A stretch of DNA of 64,000 nt from an uncultured Burkholderiales bacterium (GCA_964561855.1 CAZLQP010000002.1:99-64098), one strand, 5' to 3'. Shown: positions 772 to 59,642, numbered from the stretch's first letter. Notes: generated by a model not told the origin, from the sequence alone. Translations and numbers: made by a program.

Positions 772-780
772 AGGTTTTTG

Positions 781-1944
781 ATGTCAAAAAAGCGTGTCGC
801 GATTGATGCAACAGCTACACCCTTGGCTTTAACGGGTGCAGGATATTATGTTCAAGAGCTGATCAAACAGTTAGATGGTTCTGATGAAATTGAGCTTTTT
901 ATTATCACGAAAAAATGTGACTTAGATCGTTTTCAAGCGATTGCTCCAAATTCCAAGATTCTAAACAAAGGACCAAACAGTATTGTTGGGAGAGTGTTGT
1001 TTCAAACGTTTCAGCTTGGAAAGTTTGTTGATGATTTGAGTGTTGATCTTTTTCACGGACCTCATTATCAAGTTCCATTAAAAATGAAAACGAAAAGTGT
1101 TGTGACGATTCATGACATGACGATGATCACACATCCCGAAGTACATAAATTTACAAAGCGTTTGTATTTTACGAAGATGATTCCTTTTGCCATAAAAAAG
1201 TCAGAAGCAATCATAACGGTAAGCCAACACACAGCAGATGATGTTGCAAAATTAGGATTAGCGAACGAAAAAATAACAGTTGCTCCTCTAGGAGTAAACA
1301 CCTCCCGCTTCACTGCCAACACTCCGGGGGTCCGTCCCTACAAATCAGACAAAACCGACAGCAACCTTTTGAAGGGTCGAGGAATTGAAGGATCTTTCAT
1401 TGCGTTCTTAGGTCTGATCGAGCCAAGAAAATGTGTACCTACACTCGTCAGAGCTTTTTCGAAGATCGCTGAAGATTTTCCAGAACACAAACTCGTAATC
1501 GCTGGAGCTGAAGGCTGGGGAATCGACGAAGTTAGAACTGCTATTGCTGAAAGTAAGACCTCATCAAGGATCGTATTGCCAGGAAGACTTTCCGATGATG
1601 AAGTACCTGCGTTACTCAGAGAATGTGATGTATTTGTCTATCCTTCGATGTATGAGGGATTTGGAATGCCAGTGATTGAAGCTATGGCTTGTGGGGCCCC
1701 TGTGATCACAACACGATCTTCTTCTTTATCGGAAGTCGCGGGAGATGCAGCAACTTTGATTGAACCAAAAAATGAAATCGAGCTTTCAGAAGCGTTGTCG
1801 AAGTTGTTATCTGATGAGCAATTGAGAAAAGATTTTTCTGCTCGCAGCATAAAAAGAGCAAAAGAATTCACCTGGGAAAATTGCGCCAAGCATCATATTG
1901 ATGCTTTTGTTAACGCAATAGGGTCAGACCCTATTAGAGGCTAG
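781..1944 (+). CDS. Glycosyltransferase (GT4-like)
   Basis: 388-aa ORF with the motifs EPRKC and YEGFGMPVIEAMACGAPVI. The ATG at 781 follows the TTG at 778 and has an AAAGG 8 nt upstream. The last residues (GSDPIRG) are encoded by a palindromic repeat. Confidence 0.85.
   Translation: MSKKRVAIDATATPLALTGAGYYVQELIKQLDGSDEIELFIITKKCDLDRFQAIAPNSKILNKGPNSIVGRVLFQTFQLGKFVDDLSVDLFHGPHYQVPLKMKTKSVVTIHDMTMITHPEVHKFTKRLYFTKMIPFAIKKSEAIITVSQHTADDVAKLGLANEKITVAPLGVNTSRFTANTPGVRPYKSDKTDSNLLKGRGIEGSFIAFLGLIEPRKCVPTLVRAFSKIAEDFPEHKLVIAGAEGWGIDEVRTAIAESKTSSRIVLPGRLSDDEVPALLRECDVFVYPSMYEGFGMPVIEAMACGAPVITTRSSSLSEVAGDAATLIEPKNEIELSEALSKLLSDEQLRKDFSARSIKRAKEFTWENCAKHHIDAFVNAIGSDPIRG
1918..1934. repeat. Palindromic unit ATAGGGTCAGACCCTAT (family 1)
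   Basis: 17-nt odd palindrome that lies on the convergent 3' ends of genes 781..1944 and 1941..3005. The same unit recurs at 4364-4380 and twice in 5526-5565. Confidence 0.85.
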
Positions 1945-3005
1945 GGGATCTTCACAGTAGAAGTATCTCCTACCATTAGCCTATATGCGCTTGGCTGAAC
2001 ATCATCTTTAACGACAACTGCATTGCGTCCCATGAGAGTATCCACAAGTCGAGTTACTCCTCGCACAACACCATCTTCCATTAATACAGAATGCTCGAGT
2101 TCAGAATCAACGATCTCAACTCCAGAAGCTATCGAAGAATAAGGTCCAATATAACTTCGCTCGATGATTGCATTTGGACCAATAACTACAGGTCCGCGAA
2201 TAGTGGAATCGATAATCTTGGCGCCCTCAGAAATGATCACTCGACCTTCTATCCGACTTGGTTCATCAACAGAACCTTTAATTTCAGTTTCGATCAGATC
2301 CAACACAATCCGATTCGCTTCCAACATATCTTGTAGTTTCCCGGTATCGATCCAAGGCGTATCTATCGTGTGCTGTTTTACATTTAATCCTTGATCGATC
2401 AACCATTGAATCGCATCAGTGATTTCTAACTCACCACGCGCAGAAGGTTCAATAGATCTAACTGCCTCGTGGATCTCCTTATCAAAAAGATATACACCCA
2501 CTAAAGCAAGATTACTTGGGGGATCTTTTGGTTTTTCTACAAGTCGGATCAATGAACCATCATTTGCTACTTCAGCAACACCAAACTGCCGTGGATCATC
2601 AACACTATTTAGAAGAACCATTGCATTTGGATTTTGCGAATTAAATTCGTCTACAAAACCTGTAATGCCACCAAGAACAACATTGTCGCCAAGGTACATC
2701 ACGAATGGATCATCACCAAGAAAATCTCGCGCTATCAGAACAGTATGTGCAAGACCAGAAGGCGCATCTTGTTCGATATAAGTAACGTTGATACCAAGTT
2801 CACTTCCATCACCCACTGCAGCACGGATGTCGTCGCCAGTTTCTCCAATAATTATGCCGACTTCAGTAATTCCTGCATCACGAATTGCTTCGAGTCCATA
2901 AAACAAAACCGGTTTGTTCGCTAAAGGAACAAGCTGTTTTGCGCACGTATAAGTGATAGGTCTCAACCGTGAACCGGTTCCACCTGATAAAACCAATGCC
3001 TTCAT
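1941..3005 (-). CDS. Sugar-1-phosphate nucleotidyltransferase (glucose-1-phosphate thymidylyltransferase-like, long form with C-terminal left-handed beta-helix)
   Basis: 354 aa. The N-terminus LSGGTGSRLRPIT is the nucleotidyltransferase signature. The C-terminal hexapeptide-like repeats are typical of the long form. Confidence 0.8.
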   Translation of the reverse strand: MKALVLSGGTGSRLRPITYTCAKQLVPLANKPVLFYGLEAIRDAGITEVGIIIGETGDDIRAAVGDGSELGINVTYIEQDAPSGLAHTVLIARDFLGDDPFVMYLGDNVVLGGITGFVDEFNSQNPNAMVLLNSVDDPRQFGVAEVANDGSLIRLVEKPKDPPSNLALVGVYLFDKEIHEAVRSIEPSARGELEITDAIQWLIDQGLNVKQHTIDTPWIDTGKLQDMLEANRIVLDLIETEIKGSVDEPSRIEGRVIISEGAKIIDSTIRGPVVIGPNAIIERSYIGPYSSIASGVEIVDSELEHSVLMEDGVVRGVTRLVDTLMGRNAVVVKDDVQPSAYRLMVGDTSTVKIP

Positions 3006-3055
3006 ATCTACAGTCTAAAGCGTTAGCGCTCTCTAATTCGAAAAAGCTGTTATTT

Positions 3056-3844
3056 TCAGGTATTTAAAAGTTCTTCTGCAGACAAATCATCTTGAGGTCC
3101 TGATATGAATCTATCGAGCCACCCAAGCAAAGTAGCCACCGCTCTGGGGTCATAACGCAACCTATGTCCAGAAGTTGGGATAATGCGCTTCTCGCAGTTT
3201 TGACCTAACGCAGCTGCGAGATCATGCGCAGCTTGTACCGGCACCACATCATCTTCGTTTCCATGGATAAGCAACGTTGGTATCGACTGCAAACGAGAAT
3301 TAACATCCAGTGGATGTAACGCACGAAATTCCTGAATCCAAACATTAGGATCTGCTGGATATTCAGGATCATGCAGTAGTCCAACATTTCTCACGTGTGC
3401 TAGAAATTGCTTCGGGTTTTGTATCCACTCATCCAAAGTTGATGGACAAGAAATCAATACAAGGCCCTTCACTCTATTGTCACTTGCAGCATGCTCTAAT
3501 GCGAGAACTCCGCCAAGAGATGTACCAATAAGAATTACTGAATCAACATCTTCACGTTCAGTCATCGCATCTACTGCCGCGCGAATATCTCTTCTCCAGT
3601 TCGGCACAGAAAACTCTCCTGGAGAATCTCCAGTTCCTCGCATTAAGAAAAAGAGTGTCACAACGCCATTTTCTTGAGTTAGTCGATCGGCAAGTTCAGG
3701 ATATGAAGCAGCAAAAGTCGCACCACCATGTGAACCTACAGGGATACCATGAAGAATTATCACACCCACTTTACGAGTGTGTAGCTGTGGTTCGCTCCAG
3801 TGAGCTACCAAAGATACAGAGTCTGATTCGAGGAATGATTCCAT
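3056..3844 (-). CDS. Alpha/beta-fold hydrolase
   Basis: 262 aa with the nucleophile elbow GTSLGG, a C-terminal HG..D and an SGH motif. Confidence 0.7.
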   Translation of the reverse strand: MESFLESDSVSLVAHWSEPQLHTRKVGVIILHGIPVGSHGGATFAASYPELADRLTQENGVVTLFFLMRGTGDSPGEFSVPNWRRDIRAAVDAMTEREDVDSVILIGTSLGGVLALEHAASDNRVKGLVLISCPSTLDEWIQNPKQFLAHVRNVGLLHDPEYPADPNVWIQEFRALHPLDVNSRLQSIPTLLIHGNEDDVVPVQAAHDLAAALGQNCEKRIIPTSGHRLRYDPRAVATLLGWLDRFISGPQDDLSAEELLNT

Positions 3845-3878
3845 AATGTAATGCTATCGGAAACTGCTAGATGAATAT

Positions 3879-4301
3879 TTACACTTCTGTAATAATTGCA
3901 TTGATTTCTTCTAAATAGTTGAATGAATGGTCAATTATTTTGACTATTGATTCATAATCGACATCCAATTCTGGCTTGTGTGCTTTAATTTTTTCAGCAA
4001 TATCAGAGGACTTTAATTTTGTTTCTTTGTTGCTTTGATCGCTTTGATCCAATGACTCTTTTATTAGATTATGTTCACTTAATACATGCACAAAGGAATG
4101 AAGTATTTCATCGAGCTCTTTAGGTGTAACTTTTGAGCCTGTCTCTTCATCAAGTTTCTCAAAAATTACGTCATACATCCTGTCCATGTCGATTAATGGT
4201 GTTGGAGGATTCTGGGCAAATTGCTTCGCTTGTCTCGCTATCAAAAAAGAAGAAAGGACAATACTGATGATTATGATGACAACGATCAGGCTTATAGACA
4301 T
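3879..4301 (-). CDS. Hypothetical N-terminally membrane-anchored protein
   Basis: 140-aa ORF with one N-terminal hydrophobic helix (ISLIVVIIIISIVLSSFLI). I recognised no family. Confidence 0.5.
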   Translation of the reverse strand: MSISLIVVIIIISIVLSSFLIARQAKQFAQNPPTPLIDMDRMYDVIFEKLDEETGSKVTPKELDEILHSFVHVLSEHNLIKESLDQSDQSNKETKLKSSDIAEKIKAHKPELDVDYESIVKIIDHSFNYLEEINAIITEV

Positions 4302-4363
4302 ACCTACAATATAGCCTTACGATCTAGCGATTTACCTACCTGATGCATTTGTGTGACTTGTCT

Positions 4364-4380
4364 ATAGGGTCAGACCCTAT
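4364..4380. repeat. Palindromic unit ATAGGGTCAGACCCTAT (family 1)
   Basis: Exact copy of the 1918-1934 unit. It directly abuts the TAA stop (4381-4383) of the acyl-CoA dehydrogenase gene. Confidence 0.85.
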
Positions 4381-5508
4381 TTAGACACTCTGTCTGAGAT
4401 CTTCAGCTAATTGTTGGGCGTGTTTATGAGGTAAGCCTAGGTAGGCGTTCATGAATGCTGAGCGTTTGAAGTAAAGCTGAGCGTCATGTTCCATCGTAAA
4501 ACCGATACCACCATGAATCTGGATGTTCTCCCCTGCAGCGTGTGAAAATGCTTTAGAACAGTAGTATTTTGCCATGGAAGCAACGTGACTCAAATCATCT
4601 TGGAGATCATCACCTGCAAATCCTGCATCTTGACTTGCAAGCCAAGCACCATAGAGCGCAATCGATCTGGCACTTTGTGTTTCTAACAACATGTCAGCAC
4701 ACTTATGTTTGATTGCTTGAAAACTTCCTATTGGGCGACCAAATTGTTTCCGATCTTTGGCATATTGGACTGCCATATCGAGCACTGCCTGAGATGATCC
4801 AACAATTTCATTAGATAAAGCAACGGTCGTTCGTGCTAAAGCACGCAAATAATTCTTAGAGGAATCTCCGTCAGAAAGGATTTGTGCGTAAACACCTGTC
4901 AGATCGATTTTTGCTAGCGGTATAGTTTGATCAATAGATGGAACTATCGTTCTATTGACACCATCTTGATTCAAATCTACATATACAAAATCATTATTTT
5001 CGGTTGCGAAAAAATACAGTTTGTCAGCATCGAGACCAAAAGGAACTTGAGATAAAGTTGTACTCAATACCACTCCGCCACTTCCAGTATCTCTCGGAAG
5101 TGAATCTAAACCATCGCGATTTACTTCATCAGCAAATATAACCGTTGCTAGCTGATCCCCCGAAACTAATTCAGGTAAATGCTGTGCCTTTGCTTCATCT
5201 GTCGCACACTCCATTAAAGCGATCTGCGAAAAGATGTGAGCTCGAAATGGTGTCGGGGATAGGAAGTAGCCAAGTTGTTCTTGCGCAACAGAAATCTCAA
5301 CATCGCTCGCTCCGTAACCACCGTATTTTTCAGGAACCACTAATGAGGCCAATCCTAATTCAGTACACAATGCGGAATATAGTGCTTGGTCATATCCATT
5401 ATCCGAGACAATGGCTTGCCGAATTGCATCGCTCGTCGAACGTTTCGAAAGGAAGTCTTTAACAGCATCTTGTAGGGATAATTGTTCATCATTTAAAGCA
5501 AACTTCAC
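4381..5508 (-). CDS. Acyl-CoA dehydrogenase family protein
   Basis: 375 aa with an ACAD-like C-terminal domain (QIHGGIGFTMEHDAQLYFKR). The GTG start overlaps the upstream ACAD stop as GTGA. Confidence 0.8.
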   Translation of the reverse strand: MKFALNDEQLSLQDAVKDFLSKRSTSDAIRQAIVSDNGYDQALYSALCTELGLASLVVPEKYGGYGASDVEISVAQEQLGYFLSPTPFRAHIFSQIALMECATDEAKAQHLPELVSGDQLATVIFADEVNRDGLDSLPRDTGSGGVVLSTTLSQVPFGLDADKLYFFATENNDFVYVDLNQDGVNRTIVPSIDQTIPLAKIDLTGVYAQILSDGDSSKNYLRALARTTVALSNEIVGSSQAVLDMAVQYAKDRKQFGRPIGSFQAIKHKCADMLLETQSARSIALYGAWLASQDAGFAGDDLQDDLSHVASMAKYYCSKAFSHAAGENIQIHGGIGFTMEHDAQLYFKRSAFMNAYLGLPHKHAQQLAEDLRQSV

Positions 5509-6773
5509 TTTGAACCGCCTTCGTTAATAGGGTCTGACCCTTTGGACAAAGGGTCAGACCCTATTTGAGACGACGCGCGGAAGGGATCTTTGGGAAGTCC
5601 TAAGACTTGTTCGGCGAGAATGTTTTTTTGAATTTCGCTTGTTCCGGCATAAATAGTTTCCGAACGAGAAAACATAAAAATGCGTTGCAAGTCATTCACT
5701 TCATATTCATTCGGATCTTGATAGCTTGCACTAAGCCCATCAAGGCCGAGCACGTCCATTACTCTTTCGCCAAAAGTACGATGCCAAGAAGACCAATAAA
5801 GTTTTCCAATACTAGAAGCTGGACCTAGAACACCTTTGTCGACAAGTTCAGTAAGCATTCTCATTCCGTTATATTTCATGATCTGAACACCTACATAACT
5901 ATCAACTAGTTCCGCCATAATGGTGTCATCGTTTGCAGCGCCATTTTGTTTTGCGACTTCCAAAACAGTTTCAACTTCTCTCGCAAAACTCAGTTGCTGG
6001 GCTAAAAATGCAGTACCGCGCTCAAAACCAAGCGTCGCCATAGCTATTTTCCAGCCATCATTCACCTCACCCACAACATTGTCTTTATGAGTTCGTGCAT
6101 TGTTAAAAAACACTTCGTTAAATTCTTTTGTTCCTGTCATTTGAACTAGCGGACGAACTTCTACGCCTTCTTGATCTAAGGGAATCAACATATAGGTTAA
6201 GCCAGCTTGGGGTTTAACTTTTGCGGCTTCTTTGTCTGTGCGCACAACAGCAAAAATCCAGTTCGATTTATGAGCTAGAGTCGTCCAAGTTTTCTGACCG
6301 TTAATTACCCACTCATCACCATCGAGTTCAGCTGTCATTGCAATAGCTGCTAAATCACTTCCGGCATTTGGCTCGCTATATCCTTGACACCAGATATCTT
6401 CGCACTTTTGAATTCGAGGTAATAACTCCCTCTTTTGATCCTCAGTACCATATGCCAACAAAGTTGGAGCAAAAAGTCCTTCGCCGAAAAAACTCGCCCG
6501 AGCTGGAGCATTCGCGCGAACATATTCTTGATTGAATATCACTTGCTCCATAAATGAAGCGTTACGACCACCATATTCTTCAGGCCAGCTCATCCCAAGC
6601 CATTTAGCTTCACCAAGCTTTTTCTCCCAAGCCAGACGTTCTTCCCAATGCTGGTCATCAATCGCGCCACCTTTTCCACCAACAGCTTTAAACTCGTCTG
6701 TGAGGTTTTCATCTAGCCATAAGCGCACTTGGGCTCTAAATTCGGCATCTTGTTTTGAGTCGGTTAAATCCAC
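5505..6773 (-). CDS. Acyl-CoA dehydrogenase family protein (C-terminus extended through a palindromic repeat)
   Basis: 422 aa with the ACAD motifs WCQGYSEPNAGSD and IYAGTSEIQKNILAEQVLGLP. The last ~25 aa (..IGSDPLSKGSDPINEGGSK) are encoded by the 40-nt palindrome. Confidence 0.85.
   Translation of the reverse strand: MDLTDSKQDAEFRAQVRLWLDENLTDEFKAVGGKGGAIDDQHWEERLAWEKKLGEAKWLGMSWPEEYGGRNASFMEQVIFNQEYVRANAPARASFFGEGLFAPTLLAYGTEDQKRELLPRIQKCEDIWCQGYSEPNAGSDLAAIAMTAELDGDEWVINGQKTWTTLAHKSNWIFAVVRTDKEAAKVKPQAGLTYMLIPLDQEGVEVRPLVQMTGTKEFNEVFFNNARTHKDNVVGEVNDGWKIAMATLGFERGTAFLAQQLSFAREVETVLEVAKQNGAANDDTIMAELVDSYVGVQIMKYNGMRMLTELVDKGVLGPASSIGKLYWSSWHRTFGERVMDVLGLDGLSASYQDPNEYEVNDLQRIFMFSRSETIYAGTSEIQKNILAEQVLGLPKDPFRASSQIGSDPLSKGSDPINEGGSK
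5526..5565. repeat. Perfect 19+19-nt inverted repeat made of two family-1 units
   Basis: The sequence is AATAGGGTCTGACCCTTTG-GA-CAAAGGGTCAGACCCTATT. It lies inside the 3' end of CDS 5505..6773, just upstream of the coupled start of CDS 4381..5508. Confidence 0.9.
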
Positions 6774-13343: not shown

Positions 13344-13462
13344 CCTCAAGTTGGCGGGAAAAACGATGCAAAACCAATCTTTTTTCACGCCAACTCGGCT
13401 TTAGCTTTTTAGATGGCGGGAAAAACGATGCAAAACCGATCCTTTTTCACGCCAACTTGAGG
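13344..13462. repeat. Two tandem family-4 hairpin repeats bracketed by an outer inverted repeat
   Basis: The two copies are GTTGGCGGGAAAAACGATGCAAAACC(A/G)ATC..TTTTTCACGCCAAC at 13350-13394 and 13413-13456. The outer arms are CCTCAAGTTGGCG and CGCCAACTTGAGG. The element fills the gap between the convergent sufS and hisE genes. Confidence 0.85.
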
Positions 13463-20251: not shown

Positions 20252-20318
20252 ACCGGAGGACTGACCCTCCAAATGCGACAAATCGCTTTTGTACCTTTTG
20301 GAGGGTCAGTCCTCCGGT
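20252..20318. repeat. Family-2 hairpin repeat (22-nt arms, 22-nt loop)
   Basis: The arms ACCGGAGGACTGACCCTCCAAA and TTTGGAGGGTCAGTCCTCCGGT are perfectly complementary. The right arm contains the last codons and the stop of xth (..PED*). Related copies lie at 39968-40035 and 59608-59642. Confidence 0.9.
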
Positions 20319-34956: not shown

Positions 34957-34990
34957 GCTACTAGCGTCAAGGCCTTTACTTCCACCCGGT

Positions 34991-35082
34991 CGAGAAAGGG
35001 TCCGTCCTTTTCCTAGTAAAGGTCCGTCCTTTTTCGATTGAGGGTCCGACCTTTTCCAAAGAAAAGGTCGGACCCTTTCTCG
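34991..35082. repeat. Composite family-3 repeat cluster (GGTCCGTCC / GGTCCGACC units)
   Basis: Direct units AAAGGGTCCGTCCTTTT and AAAGGTCCGTCCTTTTT. An inner perfect hairpin AGGGTCCGACCTTTTC-CAAA-GAAAAGGTCGGACCCT lies at 35041-35076. The outer arms are CGAGAAAGGGTCCG and CGGACCCTTTCTCG. Confidence 0.85.
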
Positions 35083-35109
35083 AAGCCTTCTTCTTCGGGG
35101 ACCAAATTC

Positions 35110-38567: not shown

Positions 38568-39977
38568 TTGAATACATATGCCACTAGTGGAGTTTTTGTT
38601 GAAAAAAGCTTAGAATACGAAGAGATGTCAGATAACAATAATTCAAACCCTTTCAATCAAGATGATGAAGAAAGTCAAAACAACCCATATGGTTTTGACT
38701 TTGATCCCAACGCCTTATCATCGATGTTCTCCGAGATTTTCAACAACCAAGGCGCTGGCGGATTCGCAATTCCAAATTTGAATCAAGGACCAATGGAAGT
38801 TGCGGAAAAAGTCGCAGCCGACATTGCTTCTAAAGAAATAAATGAAAACGAAATCATTGAAAATGCAGAAGGATCTCCTGTTCAGGATCCTATGGCGGAA
38901 ATCATGCAAATAATGAAAATCATGGCAATGGGTTCGGGCGTCACAAAACCTTTGCATGTCGACTCAACATTTTCTGCACGTTGTGAACAGATTTATCCTG
39001 CAGCACAGAGTTACTTGATTAACAATACGGCAAATGAAGAAATCACTAACATTCCACTCGTAGTGACAGATCGTGTTAGTTGGACAAAAGACTACATCAC
39101 ATCTTTACAAGGTCCTTTAGGTGCCGCTTCAAAAAGTTTAAACCCAACCATAGGTTTTGATGAAGAAAATGAATTCTCATCTGATCAAGGATTGAATATC
39201 CAGTCTCTTATCGCAAAAACGGTTGGGCCAATGTTGTTTGGCGTGCAAGCTGGAACGATGGTTGGATACCTGAGCCACAGAGCCTACGGCGATGATGACG
39301 TATTGTTGCCTACTCAGTTGCCAGACCGAGTTGGCTTAATTGCATCGGCAGTGCAGAAATTCTCTCAAGATTGGAGTATCTCCGTAGACGAAGCAATCTT
39401 GTACTTCTTAATTCTTCAAACGTTACGAGCACATTTACGAAGTAAAGGTTGGTTAACAAAGAGACTTGATGATTTGTGTACCCAATACGTCGCGGCATAT
39501 GAACTTGATCCACATAAGTTAGAAGAATTAATGGGTGAAATCGATACTTCGTCAGAAAATCCAGTGATGGCGGTAAATGTAACTCCAGAACAAATGTTTG
39601 AAGCACTAAGGACTCCTCGACATGATGTTTTAGATGAAGAGATTGGAAGAATTTCTTCTTTACATGAAGCATATGTTGAATGGGTTTTACATAAAGACTT
39701 AGAACCTCTATTACCTAACTATCGAATTATCCAAGAGGCAAGAAAGCGTGTTGATGTATCGACTTCCGATGCTGATCGTTTTGTTGAGCAACTTTTTGGC
39801 GTTGCTATCACACCGCAGTTCAGAGAGAAGGCTCAAGCATTCATTGACGGTGTCGTAGAGCGTGGAGAAGAAGCTAAACTTCATCAGCTTTGGCACAAGG
39901 AAGAAATGATTCCTACTGAATCCGAATTCGCAGCACCCGGCCTCTGGCTCGCTCGACTCGAAGTCCTGGGGGTCTGA
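38568..39977 (+). CDS. DUF2342 / 'zinc-dependent metalloprotease'-family protein, apparently without HExxH
   Basis: Family-like segments are present: GTMVGYLSHRAYGDDDVLLP, LHEAYVEWV, and a C-terminal LWHKEEMIPTESEFAAPGLWLARL. A more likely start is the ATG at 38625 (MSDNNN..). The stop codon lies inside a family-2 repeat arm. Confidence 0.6.
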   Translation: MNTYATSGVFVEKSLEYEEMSDNNNSNPFNQDDEESQNNPYGFDFDPNALSSMFSEIFNNQGAGGFAIPNLNQGPMEVAEKVAADIASKEINENEIIENAEGSPVQDPMAEIMQIMKIMAMGSGVTKPLHVDSTFSARCEQIYPAAQSYLINNTANEEITNIPLVVTDRVSWTKDYITSLQGPLGAASKSLNPTIGFDEENEFSSDQGLNIQSLIAKTVGPMLFGVQAGTMVGYLSHRAYGDDDVLLPTQLPDRVGLIASAVQKFSQDWSISVDEAILYFLILQTLRAHLRSKGWLTKRLDDLCTQYVAAYELDPHKLEELMGEIDTSSENPVMAVNVTPEQMFEALRTPRHDVLDEEIGRISSLHEAYVEWVLHKDLEPLLPNYRIIQEARKRVDVSTSDADRFVEQLFGVAITPQFREKAQAFIDGVVERGEEAKLHQLWHKEEMIPTESEFAAPGLWLARLEVLGV

Positions 39978-40035
39978 TCCCCCAAAAGGGACTAATCAGC
40001 CAGGCGTTTTGTACCTTTTGGGGGATCAGACCCCC
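39968..40035. repeat. Family-2 hairpin repeat, variant arms
   Basis: The arms GGGGGTCTGATCCCCCAAAAGG and CCTTTTGGGGGATCAGACCCCC are perfectly complementary (22 nt). The loop ends in GCGTTTTGTA, like the copy at 20252-20318. Confidence 0.9.
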
Positions 40036-40080
40036 AGCAATGGGCTCCAGCGGTAGGGGTTTGATGCCGATAAAGCCCCT

Positions 40081-45089: not shown

Positions 45090-45980
45090 TTGACTCATCT
45101 ATGGAAGAATATAGAAGTGATTTATGAATGCGTGATTAATGTATCAATCGCCAAAGAAAAAGCGCTTTTGGATAGGGTTATCGATTCAGCAGGCGATGAA
45201 TGCATTGATGTACATCAGGATTTAGATCATAATCGCAGTGTCATAACCTTGGGATCTTATAGCCTAAGTAATGTTGCGGAGTCCGCTTATAACGTTGTCG
45301 AAGCATCAATTGAAAAATATGAAATAGCTAACCACAAAGGAGTTCATCCTCGATTAGGTATCGTCGATGTCGTACCTTTTATTTCATATGATGAAACTTC
45401 AGTCAAGCCGACAGCCGAAACAATACTTGCTTCGCATGAGATTGGAAGCAAAGTACACGAAAACTTCAATATCCCGATTTTTTATTATGACTATGCAAGC
45501 GAACTGAAAACAACTTTGCCCTACATCCGTAAAAATGCATTCGATAAGATCAAACCCGACCTAGGTGAAAATTCAGCTAATGAAAAATTTGGAACAATAT
45601 GCATCGGCGCAAGAGAACCTTTAATTGCCATCAACGTCAATTTTGATGCAAATGATTTAACCTTGGCAAAAAAACTAGCTAAGAATGTTCGTGAGAGTAC
45701 CGGCGGTTTTAAGGGAGTTCGCGCTATTGGGTTAGAGCTATACAGTCAGAACAAGTCGCAAGTTTCAATGAACATCGTGGATACGAAGAACGTTAACTTA
45801 GAAGAAGTTTTAAATCACATCATCGATTCATCAGATGAATTGGATATCAAAAGCGAAGTCGAGCTTGTTGGCTTGATGCCTCAATATGTGTTCGAAACAC
45901 TTTCATCAGATTTTCGCAACGATCACGGATTTTCTGCAAAAGACACCGTCGAATACCGCCTCTCCGCCGAGTTGGCGTGA
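45090..45980 (+). CDS. Glutamate formimidoyltransferase-like protein (FtcD N-terminal domain)
   Basis: 296 aa with ECVINVS near the N-terminus and HPRLGIVDVVPF, which is typical of formiminotransferase. The stop codon lies inside a family-4 repeat arm. Confidence 0.7.
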   Translation: MTHLWKNIEVIYECVINVSIAKEKALLDRVIDSAGDECIDVHQDLDHNRSVITLGSYSLSNVAESAYNVVEASIEKYEIANHKGVHPRLGIVDVVPFISYDETSVKPTAETILASHEIGSKVHENFNIPIFYYDYASELKTTLPYIRKNAFDKIKPDLGENSANEKFGTICIGAREPLIAINVNFDANDLTLAKKLAKNVRESTGGFKGVRAIGLELYSQNKSQVSMNIVDTKNVNLEEVLNHIIDSSDELDIKSEVELVGLMPQYVFETLSSDFRNDHGFSAKDTVEYRLSAELA

Positions 45981-46015
45981 ATAACGATGCAAAACCGATC
46001 CCTTTTCCCGCCATC
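45971..46015. repeat. Family-4 hairpin repeat, arms swapped relative to copies at 13350-13456
   Basis: The sequence is GTTGGCGTGAATAACGATGCAAAACCGATCCCTTTTCCCGCCATC. It has the same loop (ACGATGCAAAACCGATC), but the CGTG and CCCGCC arms are on opposite sides. Confidence 0.8.
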
Positions 46016-46037
46016 TCGAGATAGGAAGAAAAAGTAA

Positions 46038-57564: not shown

Positions 57565-57671
57565 GAAAAGGTCCGTCCTCTGCAGAAAAGCAGAAAAGGT
57601 CCGTCCTCTGAATCTTGCGATAAATTGCATGAGTACAAGATAATACAAGATTCAGAGGACGGACCTTTTCT
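57564..57671. repeat. Family-3 repeat cluster forming a 26-bp-stem hairpin
   Basis: AGAAAAGGTCCGTCCTCTG occurs at 57564-57582 and within 57592-57617. The inverted copy CAAGATTCAGAGGACGGACCTTTTCT lies at 57646-57671. The element sits between convergent genes, and the minus-strand stop at 57652-57654 lies inside one arm. Confidence 0.9.
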
Positions 57672-59607: not shown

Positions 59608-59642
59608 TCCGTTTTGTGAAAAATGGAGGGTCAGTCCTCCGG
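59608..59642. repeat. Half copy of family-2 repeat (loop 3' part plus right arm)
   Basis: CCGTTTTGTGAAAAATGGAGGGTCAGTCCTCCGG aligns with CGCTTTTGTACCTTTTGGAGGGTCAGTCCTCCGG at 20284-20317. It supplies ..PED* to CDS 59631..60620. Confidence 0.8.

Follow-up and report, generated by a model that had tools for sequence, protein, structure and literature searches.

Why should copies of one short palindrome lie exactly at the 3′ ends of different genes? The question is raised by a 64,000-nucleotide (nt) stretch of genomic DNA (GCA_964561855.1, CAZLQP010000002.1:99-64098; here called the window), in which a 17-nt palindrome, designated F1, abuts or overlaps the ends of a glycosyltransferase (GT) gene and of two acyl-CoA dehydrogenase genes (ACAD1 and ACAD2). 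The window is C2:99-64098 of a 1.73-Mb assembly of 38 contigs and 40.4% GC (genome G000; C-numbers denote its contigs), and six congeners are referred to as G001-G006. A sequence-only reading of the window had suggested that F1 belongs to a superfamily resembling repetitive extragenic palindromes (REPs) or miniature inverted-repeat transposable elements that occupies gene 3′ ends. As far as the likeness to REPs goes this is essentially right, since copy number, placement, orthologous sites and the presence of genes for REP-associated tyrosine transposases (RAYTs) all favor it. We estimate a probability of roughly 0.8 that F1 is a minimal, non-autonomous element of REP type, or of the type of REP doublets forming hairpins (REPINs), of the kind that IS200-like RAYTs of the Y1/HUH class spread by acting on single-stranded DNA.

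All four 17-nt units originally described in the window, two singlets and an inverted pair, were recovered (Table 1), against a chance expectation of 0.01 matches in dinucleotide-preserving shuffles. The gene context claimed for them was borne out by open reading frames (ORFs) and Pfam domains, down to the last residues of the GT. The supposed perfect 19+19-nt palindrome at 5526-5565 is real: its arms, 5526-5544 and 5547-5565, are fully complementary 19-mers with 2 nt between them. The palindrome at 4364-4380 continues outward to TGTCTA..TAGACA, with a 2-nt bulge. It had also been noted that the unit codes for GSDP on both strands, and the sequence ATA GGG TCW GAC CCT does read I-G-S-D-P on either strand in one frame; of the other frames, the second opens with TAG and the third yields TGA if the central base is T. 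Chance or ordinary coding sequence was considered as an explanation and is ruled out by the shuffles together with the absence of the F1 15-mer from relatives (see below).

Copies also occur well beyond the window, as had been anticipated. A genome-wide count allowing two mismatches found 32 further units, giving 36 units in 21 elements, of which 15 are inverted doublets and 6 are singlets. The F1 palindrome is perfect over 17-23 nt, (TCT)ATAGGGTC-W-GACCCTAT(AGA), with the extended consensus TCTATAGGGTCWGACCCTATAGA, and conservation centers on its tip, GG-TC-N-G-A-CC; 27 of the 36 units are perfect 17-mers, and there is almost no variation in the central 11 nt. Doublet arms are near-invariant and spacers are variable (4-7 nt, and 15 nt once), a TTACA-type spacer being common to four doublets. 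Two doublet topologies exist, T..A in nine cases and A..T in six, which inversion cannot interconvert. The expected non-random position relative to genes is pronounced. Using a simple gene call of the genome (1616 genes, 92% coding), 15 of the 21 elements were located on or no more than 13 nt from a gene 3′ end, where 9-10% would be expected for random intergenic positions (binomial p ~5e-12). Three of the 21 lie in divergent or 5′ regions and one lies inside a gene. Copies persist almost only just after or over stop codons, where a 92%-coding genome tolerates insertion.

F1 is one of four families, from which all of the commonest 12-mers of the whole genome derive. Approximate copy numbers are ~83 for F2 (GGAGGGTCAGTCCTCC), ~80 for F3 (AAAGGTCCGTCCTTT), ~33 for F1 and ~25 for F4 (GGGGGATCAGACCCCC), for a total of ~175 elements in 1.73 Mb. 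Common to the four is a hairpin tip, GG-TC-N-G-(A/T)-CC, with one-base variants. The sequence-only reading had held the GGTC-N-GACC core to be shared by the other repeats of the window; a related tip is indeed present, but within the window, F1 apart, the exact core is confined to positions 35043 and 35066, the other families named having the one-base variants GGGTCAGTCC, GGGTCTGATCC and GGTCCGTCC. F3 copies often carry ..CCTCTGAATCTTG beside the hairpin. A further over-represented word, CTGAATCAACTAA (~20 copies in the genome), lies outside F1-F4. Repeat elements are frequent at contig ends (C9:33-70; eight F2 and four F3 elements); they therefore probably cause assembly breaks, and a gene flanked by repeats could be missing.

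Because one frame of F1 is open and the other two bring TAG or TGA, a copy at a gene end either extends the protein or gives it a new stop. Three proteins, GT, ACAD2 and NuoF, have F1-encoded C-terminal tails of the IGSDP type. GT owes its final residues, IGSDPIRG, and its stop to the F1 unit, directly or as a consequence of it. In ACAD2 the Pfam ACAD domain stops at residue 391 of 422, and the 31-residue tail is mostly encoded by the doublet, which is translated as ..IGSDPLSKGSDPI..; the ACAD2 stop overlaps the ACAD1 GTG start (GTGA), so that the two genes are translationally coupled. Three genes ending ..RV* (asterisks in peptides denote stops) take their stop codon from the central TGA of F1. 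Counting all four families, ~42 genes (~2.6%) end inside a repeat unit and have stereotyped C-termini: ..PED* for F2 (~8 genes), ..EKRSVL* for F3 (6), ..LGV* for F4 (9), and for F1 the three ..RV* ends and the three IGSDP tails. The IGSDP, PED*, EKRSVL* and LGV* tails are repeat-derived and not functional motifs, and apparent differences between species at gene ends are often repeat turnover.

One F1 singlet (C9:18365-18381) lies in frame inside the uroporphyrinogen-III synthase domain of a hemD/cobA fusion (C9:17992-19467; ..FPDSIGSDPIAQKVV..), where it forms part of the loop DSIGSDPIAQ (..FPDS-IGSDPIA-QKVV..). In five of the six congeners this loop is 3-4 residues shorter and free of repeats; at the codon in question G001 carries GTACAGGGTCCGACCCTGTAC, a palindrome specific to that species. 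An F1 doublet also lies between ilvB and a putative attenuator. The region upstream of ilvB (C6:8152-8420; locus L231 in G001) contains a short ORF that is conserved (ATGACAAACAACCTCGTGGT.., MTNNLVV..) and, after it, the GC-rich hairpin CCCTCCnnnnGGAGGG; together these look like a branched-chain amino-acid leader peptide and its attenuator.

Can the unit form a hairpin? The sequence-only reading had considered the one-base centre too tight for a loop within a single unit. Structure prediction contradicts this. For a single unit it gives a stem of 7-8 bp capped by a C-W-G triloop (DNA, -4.4 to -6.8 kcal/mol; RNA, -6.9 to -12.2 kcal/mol), so that the one-base centre does not prevent folding. Doublets are predicted to form hairpins of 18-24 bp (DNA, -19 to -27 kcal/mol; RNA, -31 to -46 kcal/mol), the window doublet having 18 bp and a 4-nt loop. 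In three doublets (the window doublet, C3:79491 and C2:77936), substitutions that spoil the palindrome of their own unit pair with a change in the partner unit; in the window these are T/A substitutions at unit positions 16 and 2, which pair with each other. Such compensation indicates that the long hairpin between units, as opposed to the small one within a unit, has been kept, and it agrees with the cruciform that had been offered as one option for the geometry. In five of the 15 doublets, pairing runs a further 6-8 nt into locus-specific flanks, which are coding in NuoF and at C4:53915. For the 151-residue protein at C4:53470, which bears on whether a palindromic flank pre-dates the insertion, a single homologue was available (35% identical).

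Given the close association with 3′ ends and the high predicted stability of the doublets as RNA, F1 hairpins might be host-selected RNA elements (intrinsic or Rho-assisting terminators, or blocks to 3′-exonucleases), kept for function and not through mobility. Retention of the long stem by compensated changes, and its continuation into locus-specific flanks in a third of the doublets, would suit such a role, and classical REPs are known to have secondary roles of this sort. We nevertheless regard this explanation as improbable. No T-run follows any copy in the window; a terminator scan called none of the window F1 sites, and the F1 flanks listed are without a T-run. The only match in Rfam, to a hairpin of a plastid 3′ untranslated region, is below threshold (26.9 bits against a gathering cut-off of 53.1; E 0.09). 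Termination would do harm at several of the positions occupied, namely between the coupled ACAD genes, ahead of the ribosome-binding site of nuoG, within hemD, and in the interval from the ilvB attenuator to ilvB itself. Congeners lack the hairpin at the same sites, it is implausible that 27 identical 17-mers arose independently, and the same 17-mer brackets transposase genes elsewhere. If there is any effect on the host, such as protection of transcript 3′ ends or termination, it would be secondary.

Alternatively, the palindrome could act as duplex DNA. A perfect dyad of 17-23 bp with an invariant 11-bp core would make a good site for a dimeric DNA-binding protein (a transcription factor, a nucleoid protein or an enzyme of restriction-modification type), and a 1-nt centre fits a dimer. 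This too had been raised at the outset, and we consider it very improbable indeed. F1 is found at 3′ ends and not at promoters, with only three of 21 elements in divergent or 5′ regions, and the compensated arms of the doublets indicate pairing within a strand. The motif is also missing from six congeners with which gene content is shared, and in other organisms it is associated with RAYTs.

The F1 15-mer was found in none of 40 relatives, the six congeners among them, and AGGGTCWGACCCT is multicopy only in G000 (33 copies) and G005 (9 copies) among 301 Acidimicrobiia genomes. Congeners possess perfect-palindrome families of their own with the same core, TGTACAGGGTCSGACCCTGTACA in G001 and TTTGCAGGGTCWGACCCTGCAAA in G005. 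In G004 none of the three window sites is occupied. There, the spacer between the GT and nucleotidyltransferase genes is ~20 nt long without a repeat, and GT ends ..KSAIS*; the same spacer contains another REPIN in G002 and a different hairpin in G001, and was not found in G006. At the ACAD1 3′ end, the orthologous neighboring gene of G004 lies 9 nt away with no repeat between, synteny differs in G002 and G001, and the G006 contig ends. At the ACAD2/ACAD1 junction, the G004 protein ends ..LGLPR* and is followed by a 23-nt spacer, G002 has another REPIN, G001 has an in-frame F4-like singlet and the tail ..KSGSDPRTKGTK*, and G006 has a related remnant. Reciprocally, of 20 repeat sites of relatives that have syntenic flanks, at least 14 are empty in G000. 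The orthologous loci, at which empty sites were to be sought, are thus empty or hold other repeats, and are not conserved coding sequence. The junction at the NuoF tail is likewise occupied by different families in different species.

A search for RAYT or IS200-like genes elsewhere in the genome, which had been proposed as a check, found two. Both carry PF01797 (Y1_Tnp) and are single-copy: RAYT-A (C4:26323-26922) and RAYT-B (C14:19727-20335), which share 42% identity. PF01797 scores are 46 and 33 bits (Pfam cut-off, 23), and the best NCBIfam match of both is REP_Tyr_transpos, at 48 and 36 bits, below the equivalog cut-off of 80. HUH (NHFHF) and tyrosine (RYIH.NP) motifs are present in both proteins. 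In a fold search, a RAYT-A model (predicted local distance difference test score, 65.5) matched the TnpA proteins of IS608 and ISDra2 (2VJV, 2XO6) and the E. coli RAYT-REP complex 4ER8; a sequence-profile search of the PDB with the RAYT alignment gave zero matches. Inverted F2 units bracket RAYT-A and inverted F3 units bracket RAYT-B. Every congener RAYT examined, across the six congeners, is similarly bracketed by the species' own repeat, and the repeats around RAYT genes throughout the genus have the same kind of tip as F1-F4. In RAYT-B the last ~10 residues (..QEEKDGPFL*, C14:20280-20335) come from the F3 repeat that flanks the gene itself, and the F3 stretch encoding this peptide gives dozens of weak tblastn matches across the genome. 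Both RAYT genes have atypical codon usage and score too low in a codon-usage gene call trained on long ORFs.

The F1 palindrome is also found in other organisms. A metagenome survey of the exact 17-mer yielded at least 120 contigs; 80 were fetched, of 29-71% GC, and none is similar to G000. In 38 of the 80 the palindrome has an extra flank of at least 3 bp, typically AAATAGGG..CCCTATTT, and in 38 a second unit lies within 70 nt. A RAYT ORF adjoins the 17-mer in eight (L095, L106, L107, L111, L121, L136, L149 and L167), and L095, L106 and L107 have the 17-mer on either side of the ORF; in L149, too, F1-type units flank the RAYT, and the RAYT-like protein of L095 ends ..EIGSDPIF*. A profile search of genome contigs with the RAYT alignment identified a RAYT clade in Candidate Phyla Radiation (CPR) bacteria and others, and at ~10 of 80 RAYT loci of named genomes (CPR bacteria, a Bathyarchaeia metagenome-assembled genome and others) GG(G)TC-N-GACC(C) palindromes lie on both sides. 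The occurrence of the 17-mer beside RAYTs in very different organisms suggests that it is a conserved recognition hairpin of some RAYT lineages, which would provide a defined biochemical substrate. JACCD* contigs contain arrays with a period of 22 nt in which copies of the 17-mer and of ATGGGGTCWGACCCCAT alternate. The 17-mer was not found in the viral contigs searched, and a literature search found no description of the motif.

Several observations weigh against REP-type mobility of F1. No F1-flanked RAYT is present in the assembly, the nearest F1 copy being 21 kb from a RAYT, and a Pfam search and tblastn, with RAYT queries from F1-bearing contigs included, did not find a third RAYT or a remnant of one; what ties F1 to an enzyme is thus analogy, together with evidence from other genomes. 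The RAYTs that adjoin the exact 17-mer in metagenomes group apart, as a clade of their own, from the two resident RAYTs and the enzymes of the genus. The GTAG/GT(A/G)G head of classical proteobacterial REPs is not part of the F1 consensus, which has ATAG instead, and F1 singlets are conserved as well as doublets, unlike the situation in Pseudomonas REPINs. Finally, the variable spacers and the coexistence of T..A and A..T topologies are not explained by a single transposing master doublet. With 38 contigs, an F1-flanked RAYT may lie in an assembly gap, and one RAYT lineage of the genus is present in G001, G002 and G005 and missing from G000.

Taking the REP-type interpretation as a whole, we propose, by analogy with F2 and F3 and with the metagenome loci, that a RAYT mobilizes F1 or did so until recently. 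The enzyme could be a resident RAYT acting in trans, or a third RAYT that has since been lost or falls in an assembly gap. Insertion into a gene end would leave either a short protein tail, through the open IGSDP frame, or a new stop, through the TAG and TGA frames. Most copies are REPIN-like inverted doublets, with the long hairpin as the structure that is maintained.

How the doublets arise is a separate matter. They may have been made locally from singlets by fold-back (template-switch) synthesis, with orthologous copies overwritten and uniformity coming largely from templated repair or conversion. As an alternative it touches only the mechanism and does not conflict with a REP origin; we see it as a tenable possibility that has the odds against it. 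It would account for the 6-8-nt complementary flanks, locus-specific and partly coding, of five of the 15 doublets, for the existence of both topologies with differing spacers, and for the compensated arm changes. It would also account for three loci at which F1 in G000 and the own palindrome of G001 occupy the same place: the hemD codon, the ilvB leader, and a position that follows a pyrB-like stop by 7-9 nt. These shared positions may reflect repeated insertion into a few permissive sites, or overwriting in place. As a streamlined genome has few permissive sites, and the same junctions are taken by clearly different families, repeated independent insertion explains the shared positions. A hemD tree, which bears on whether that insert is shared by descent, does not establish that G000 and G001 are sisters, and the TTACA-type spacer common to four doublets is as expected of copies of one master.

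A more far-reaching version, which we advance tentatively and consider doubtful, is that ATAGGGTC-W-GACCCTAT is a deeply conserved recognition module of certain RAYT lineages across phyla and not a repeat specific to one species, and that F1 is here an orphan population, lacking its enzyme and kept uniform by fold-back doubling and by in-place overwriting at a few permissive sites. If this were true, the uniformity of F1 would stem from templated DNA repair or conversion and not from ongoing transposition; the hairpin would have been carried along or re-created by RAYT lineages in genomes from 29% to 71% GC, and in-frame sites such as the hemD codon shared with G001 would have been overwritten.

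The positions of the F1 units, their neighboring genes and the sister-family repeats of the window are given in Table 1. The window also contains an unrelated repeat with a 47-nt unit, AGTTGGCGGGAAAAACGATGCAAAACC..TTTTTCACGCCAACT, of which two adjacent copies lie at 13349-13457 and a third 32 kb away (45970-46016); these form inverted pairs.

Table 1. F1 units, adjoining genes and other REP-like repeats in the window (window coordinates).
Feature	Position	Strand	Basis	Remarks
F1 singlet ATAGGGTCAGACCCTAT	1918-1934			Within the last 9 codons of GT; 6 nt off the stop of the convergent nucleotidyltransferase
F1 singlet ATAGGGTCAGACCCTAT	4364-4380			Adjoins the ACAD1 TAA stop (4381-4383)
F1 inverted doublet	5526-5565			T-centred unit ATAGGGTCTGACCCTTT (5527-5543) and A-centred unit AAAGGGTCAGACCCTAT (5548-5564)
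GT4 glycosyltransferase (GT)	778-1944	+	ORF, Pfam	C-terminus ..AIGSDPIRG*
NTP_transferase (nucleotidyltransferase)	1941-3005	-	ORF, Pfam	Convergent; stop overlaps GT stop by 4 nt
Acyl-CoA dehydrogenase ACAD1	4381-5508	-	ORF, Pfam	GTG start
Acyl-CoA dehydrogenase ACAD2	5505-6773	-	ORF, Pfam	Tail ..QIGSDPLSKGSDPINEGGSK* through the doublet
F2 REPIN	20252-20318			GGAGGACTGACCCTCC with CAAA..ACAAA arms
F3-type REPIN cluster	34990-35083			Holds the exact GGTC-N-GACC cores at 35043 and 35066
F4 REPIN	39966-40037			GGGGGTCTGATCCCCC and CAAAAGGGACTAA; F2 variant with concerted stem changes
F3 REPIN	57592-57671			AAAAGGTCCGTCCTCT..
F2 half copy	59610-59642

Among known systems, short abundant repeats that often lie just after genes and form terminator-like hairpins include the inverted pairs of DNA uptake sequences (DUS) and the Correia elements of Neisseria. 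DUS are present in thousands of copies and function in uptake via competence pili; a DUS reading of F1 was set aside in view of its mere 36 units and the association with transposases. Integron attC sites were also considered and rejected, as there is no cassette structure and ordinary housekeeping genes lie on both sides. Like the Rickettsia palindromic elements (RPEs), F1 occurs in frame in protein genes and is translated, as in the HemD loop and the tails of GT, ACAD2 and NuoF. RPEs are ~100-150 nt long, and no transposase is known for them; F1, at 17-40 nt and mostly extragenic or terminal, differs from them in size and family. With insertion sequences of the IS200/IS605 family (IS608, ISDra2), the present system shares the fold of the RAYT enzyme and the use of subterminal DNA hairpins as recognition elements in single-strand chemistry. 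In contrast to that family, the RAYT genes of G000 are single-copy, the repeats far outnumber the gene and do not carry it, and the RAYT flanks are inverted copies of one repeat, not distinct left and right ends.

The closest likeness is to REPs and REPINs with their RAYTs, known from Enterobacteria and Pseudomonas (PMC3116915, PMC5581495), where abundant REPINs have so far been tied to RAYT groups 2 and 3 of Gammaproteobacteria (PMC5581495). As in those systems, F1 is short, palindromic, abundant, mostly extragenic and lineage-specific; it occurs mainly as inverted hairpin doublets whose spacer is less conserved than their arms; and a single-copy Y1/HUH gene is boxed by inverted copies, here of F2 and F3, and of F1-type units in metagenome contigs. 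It departs from them in that F1 itself does not flank a RAYT in G000. The F1 unit, unlike that of Pseudomonas REPINs, is itself a perfect palindrome of 17-23 nt, and its doublets measure 38-41 nt as compared with 71-110 nt. Whereas classical REPs are species-specific, the identical F1 17-mer recurs in organisms of 29-71% GC. As a kind of element F1 is known, but such elements are little described in its lineage. The REP/REPIN-RAYT system is understood almost wholly from Gammaproteobacteria, and here a streamlined 1.7-Mb genome holds four families and ~175 elements, among them F1, an abundant and uniform family without a cognate enzyme in the assembly and hence a test case for the persistence of REPs or for their mobilization in trans.

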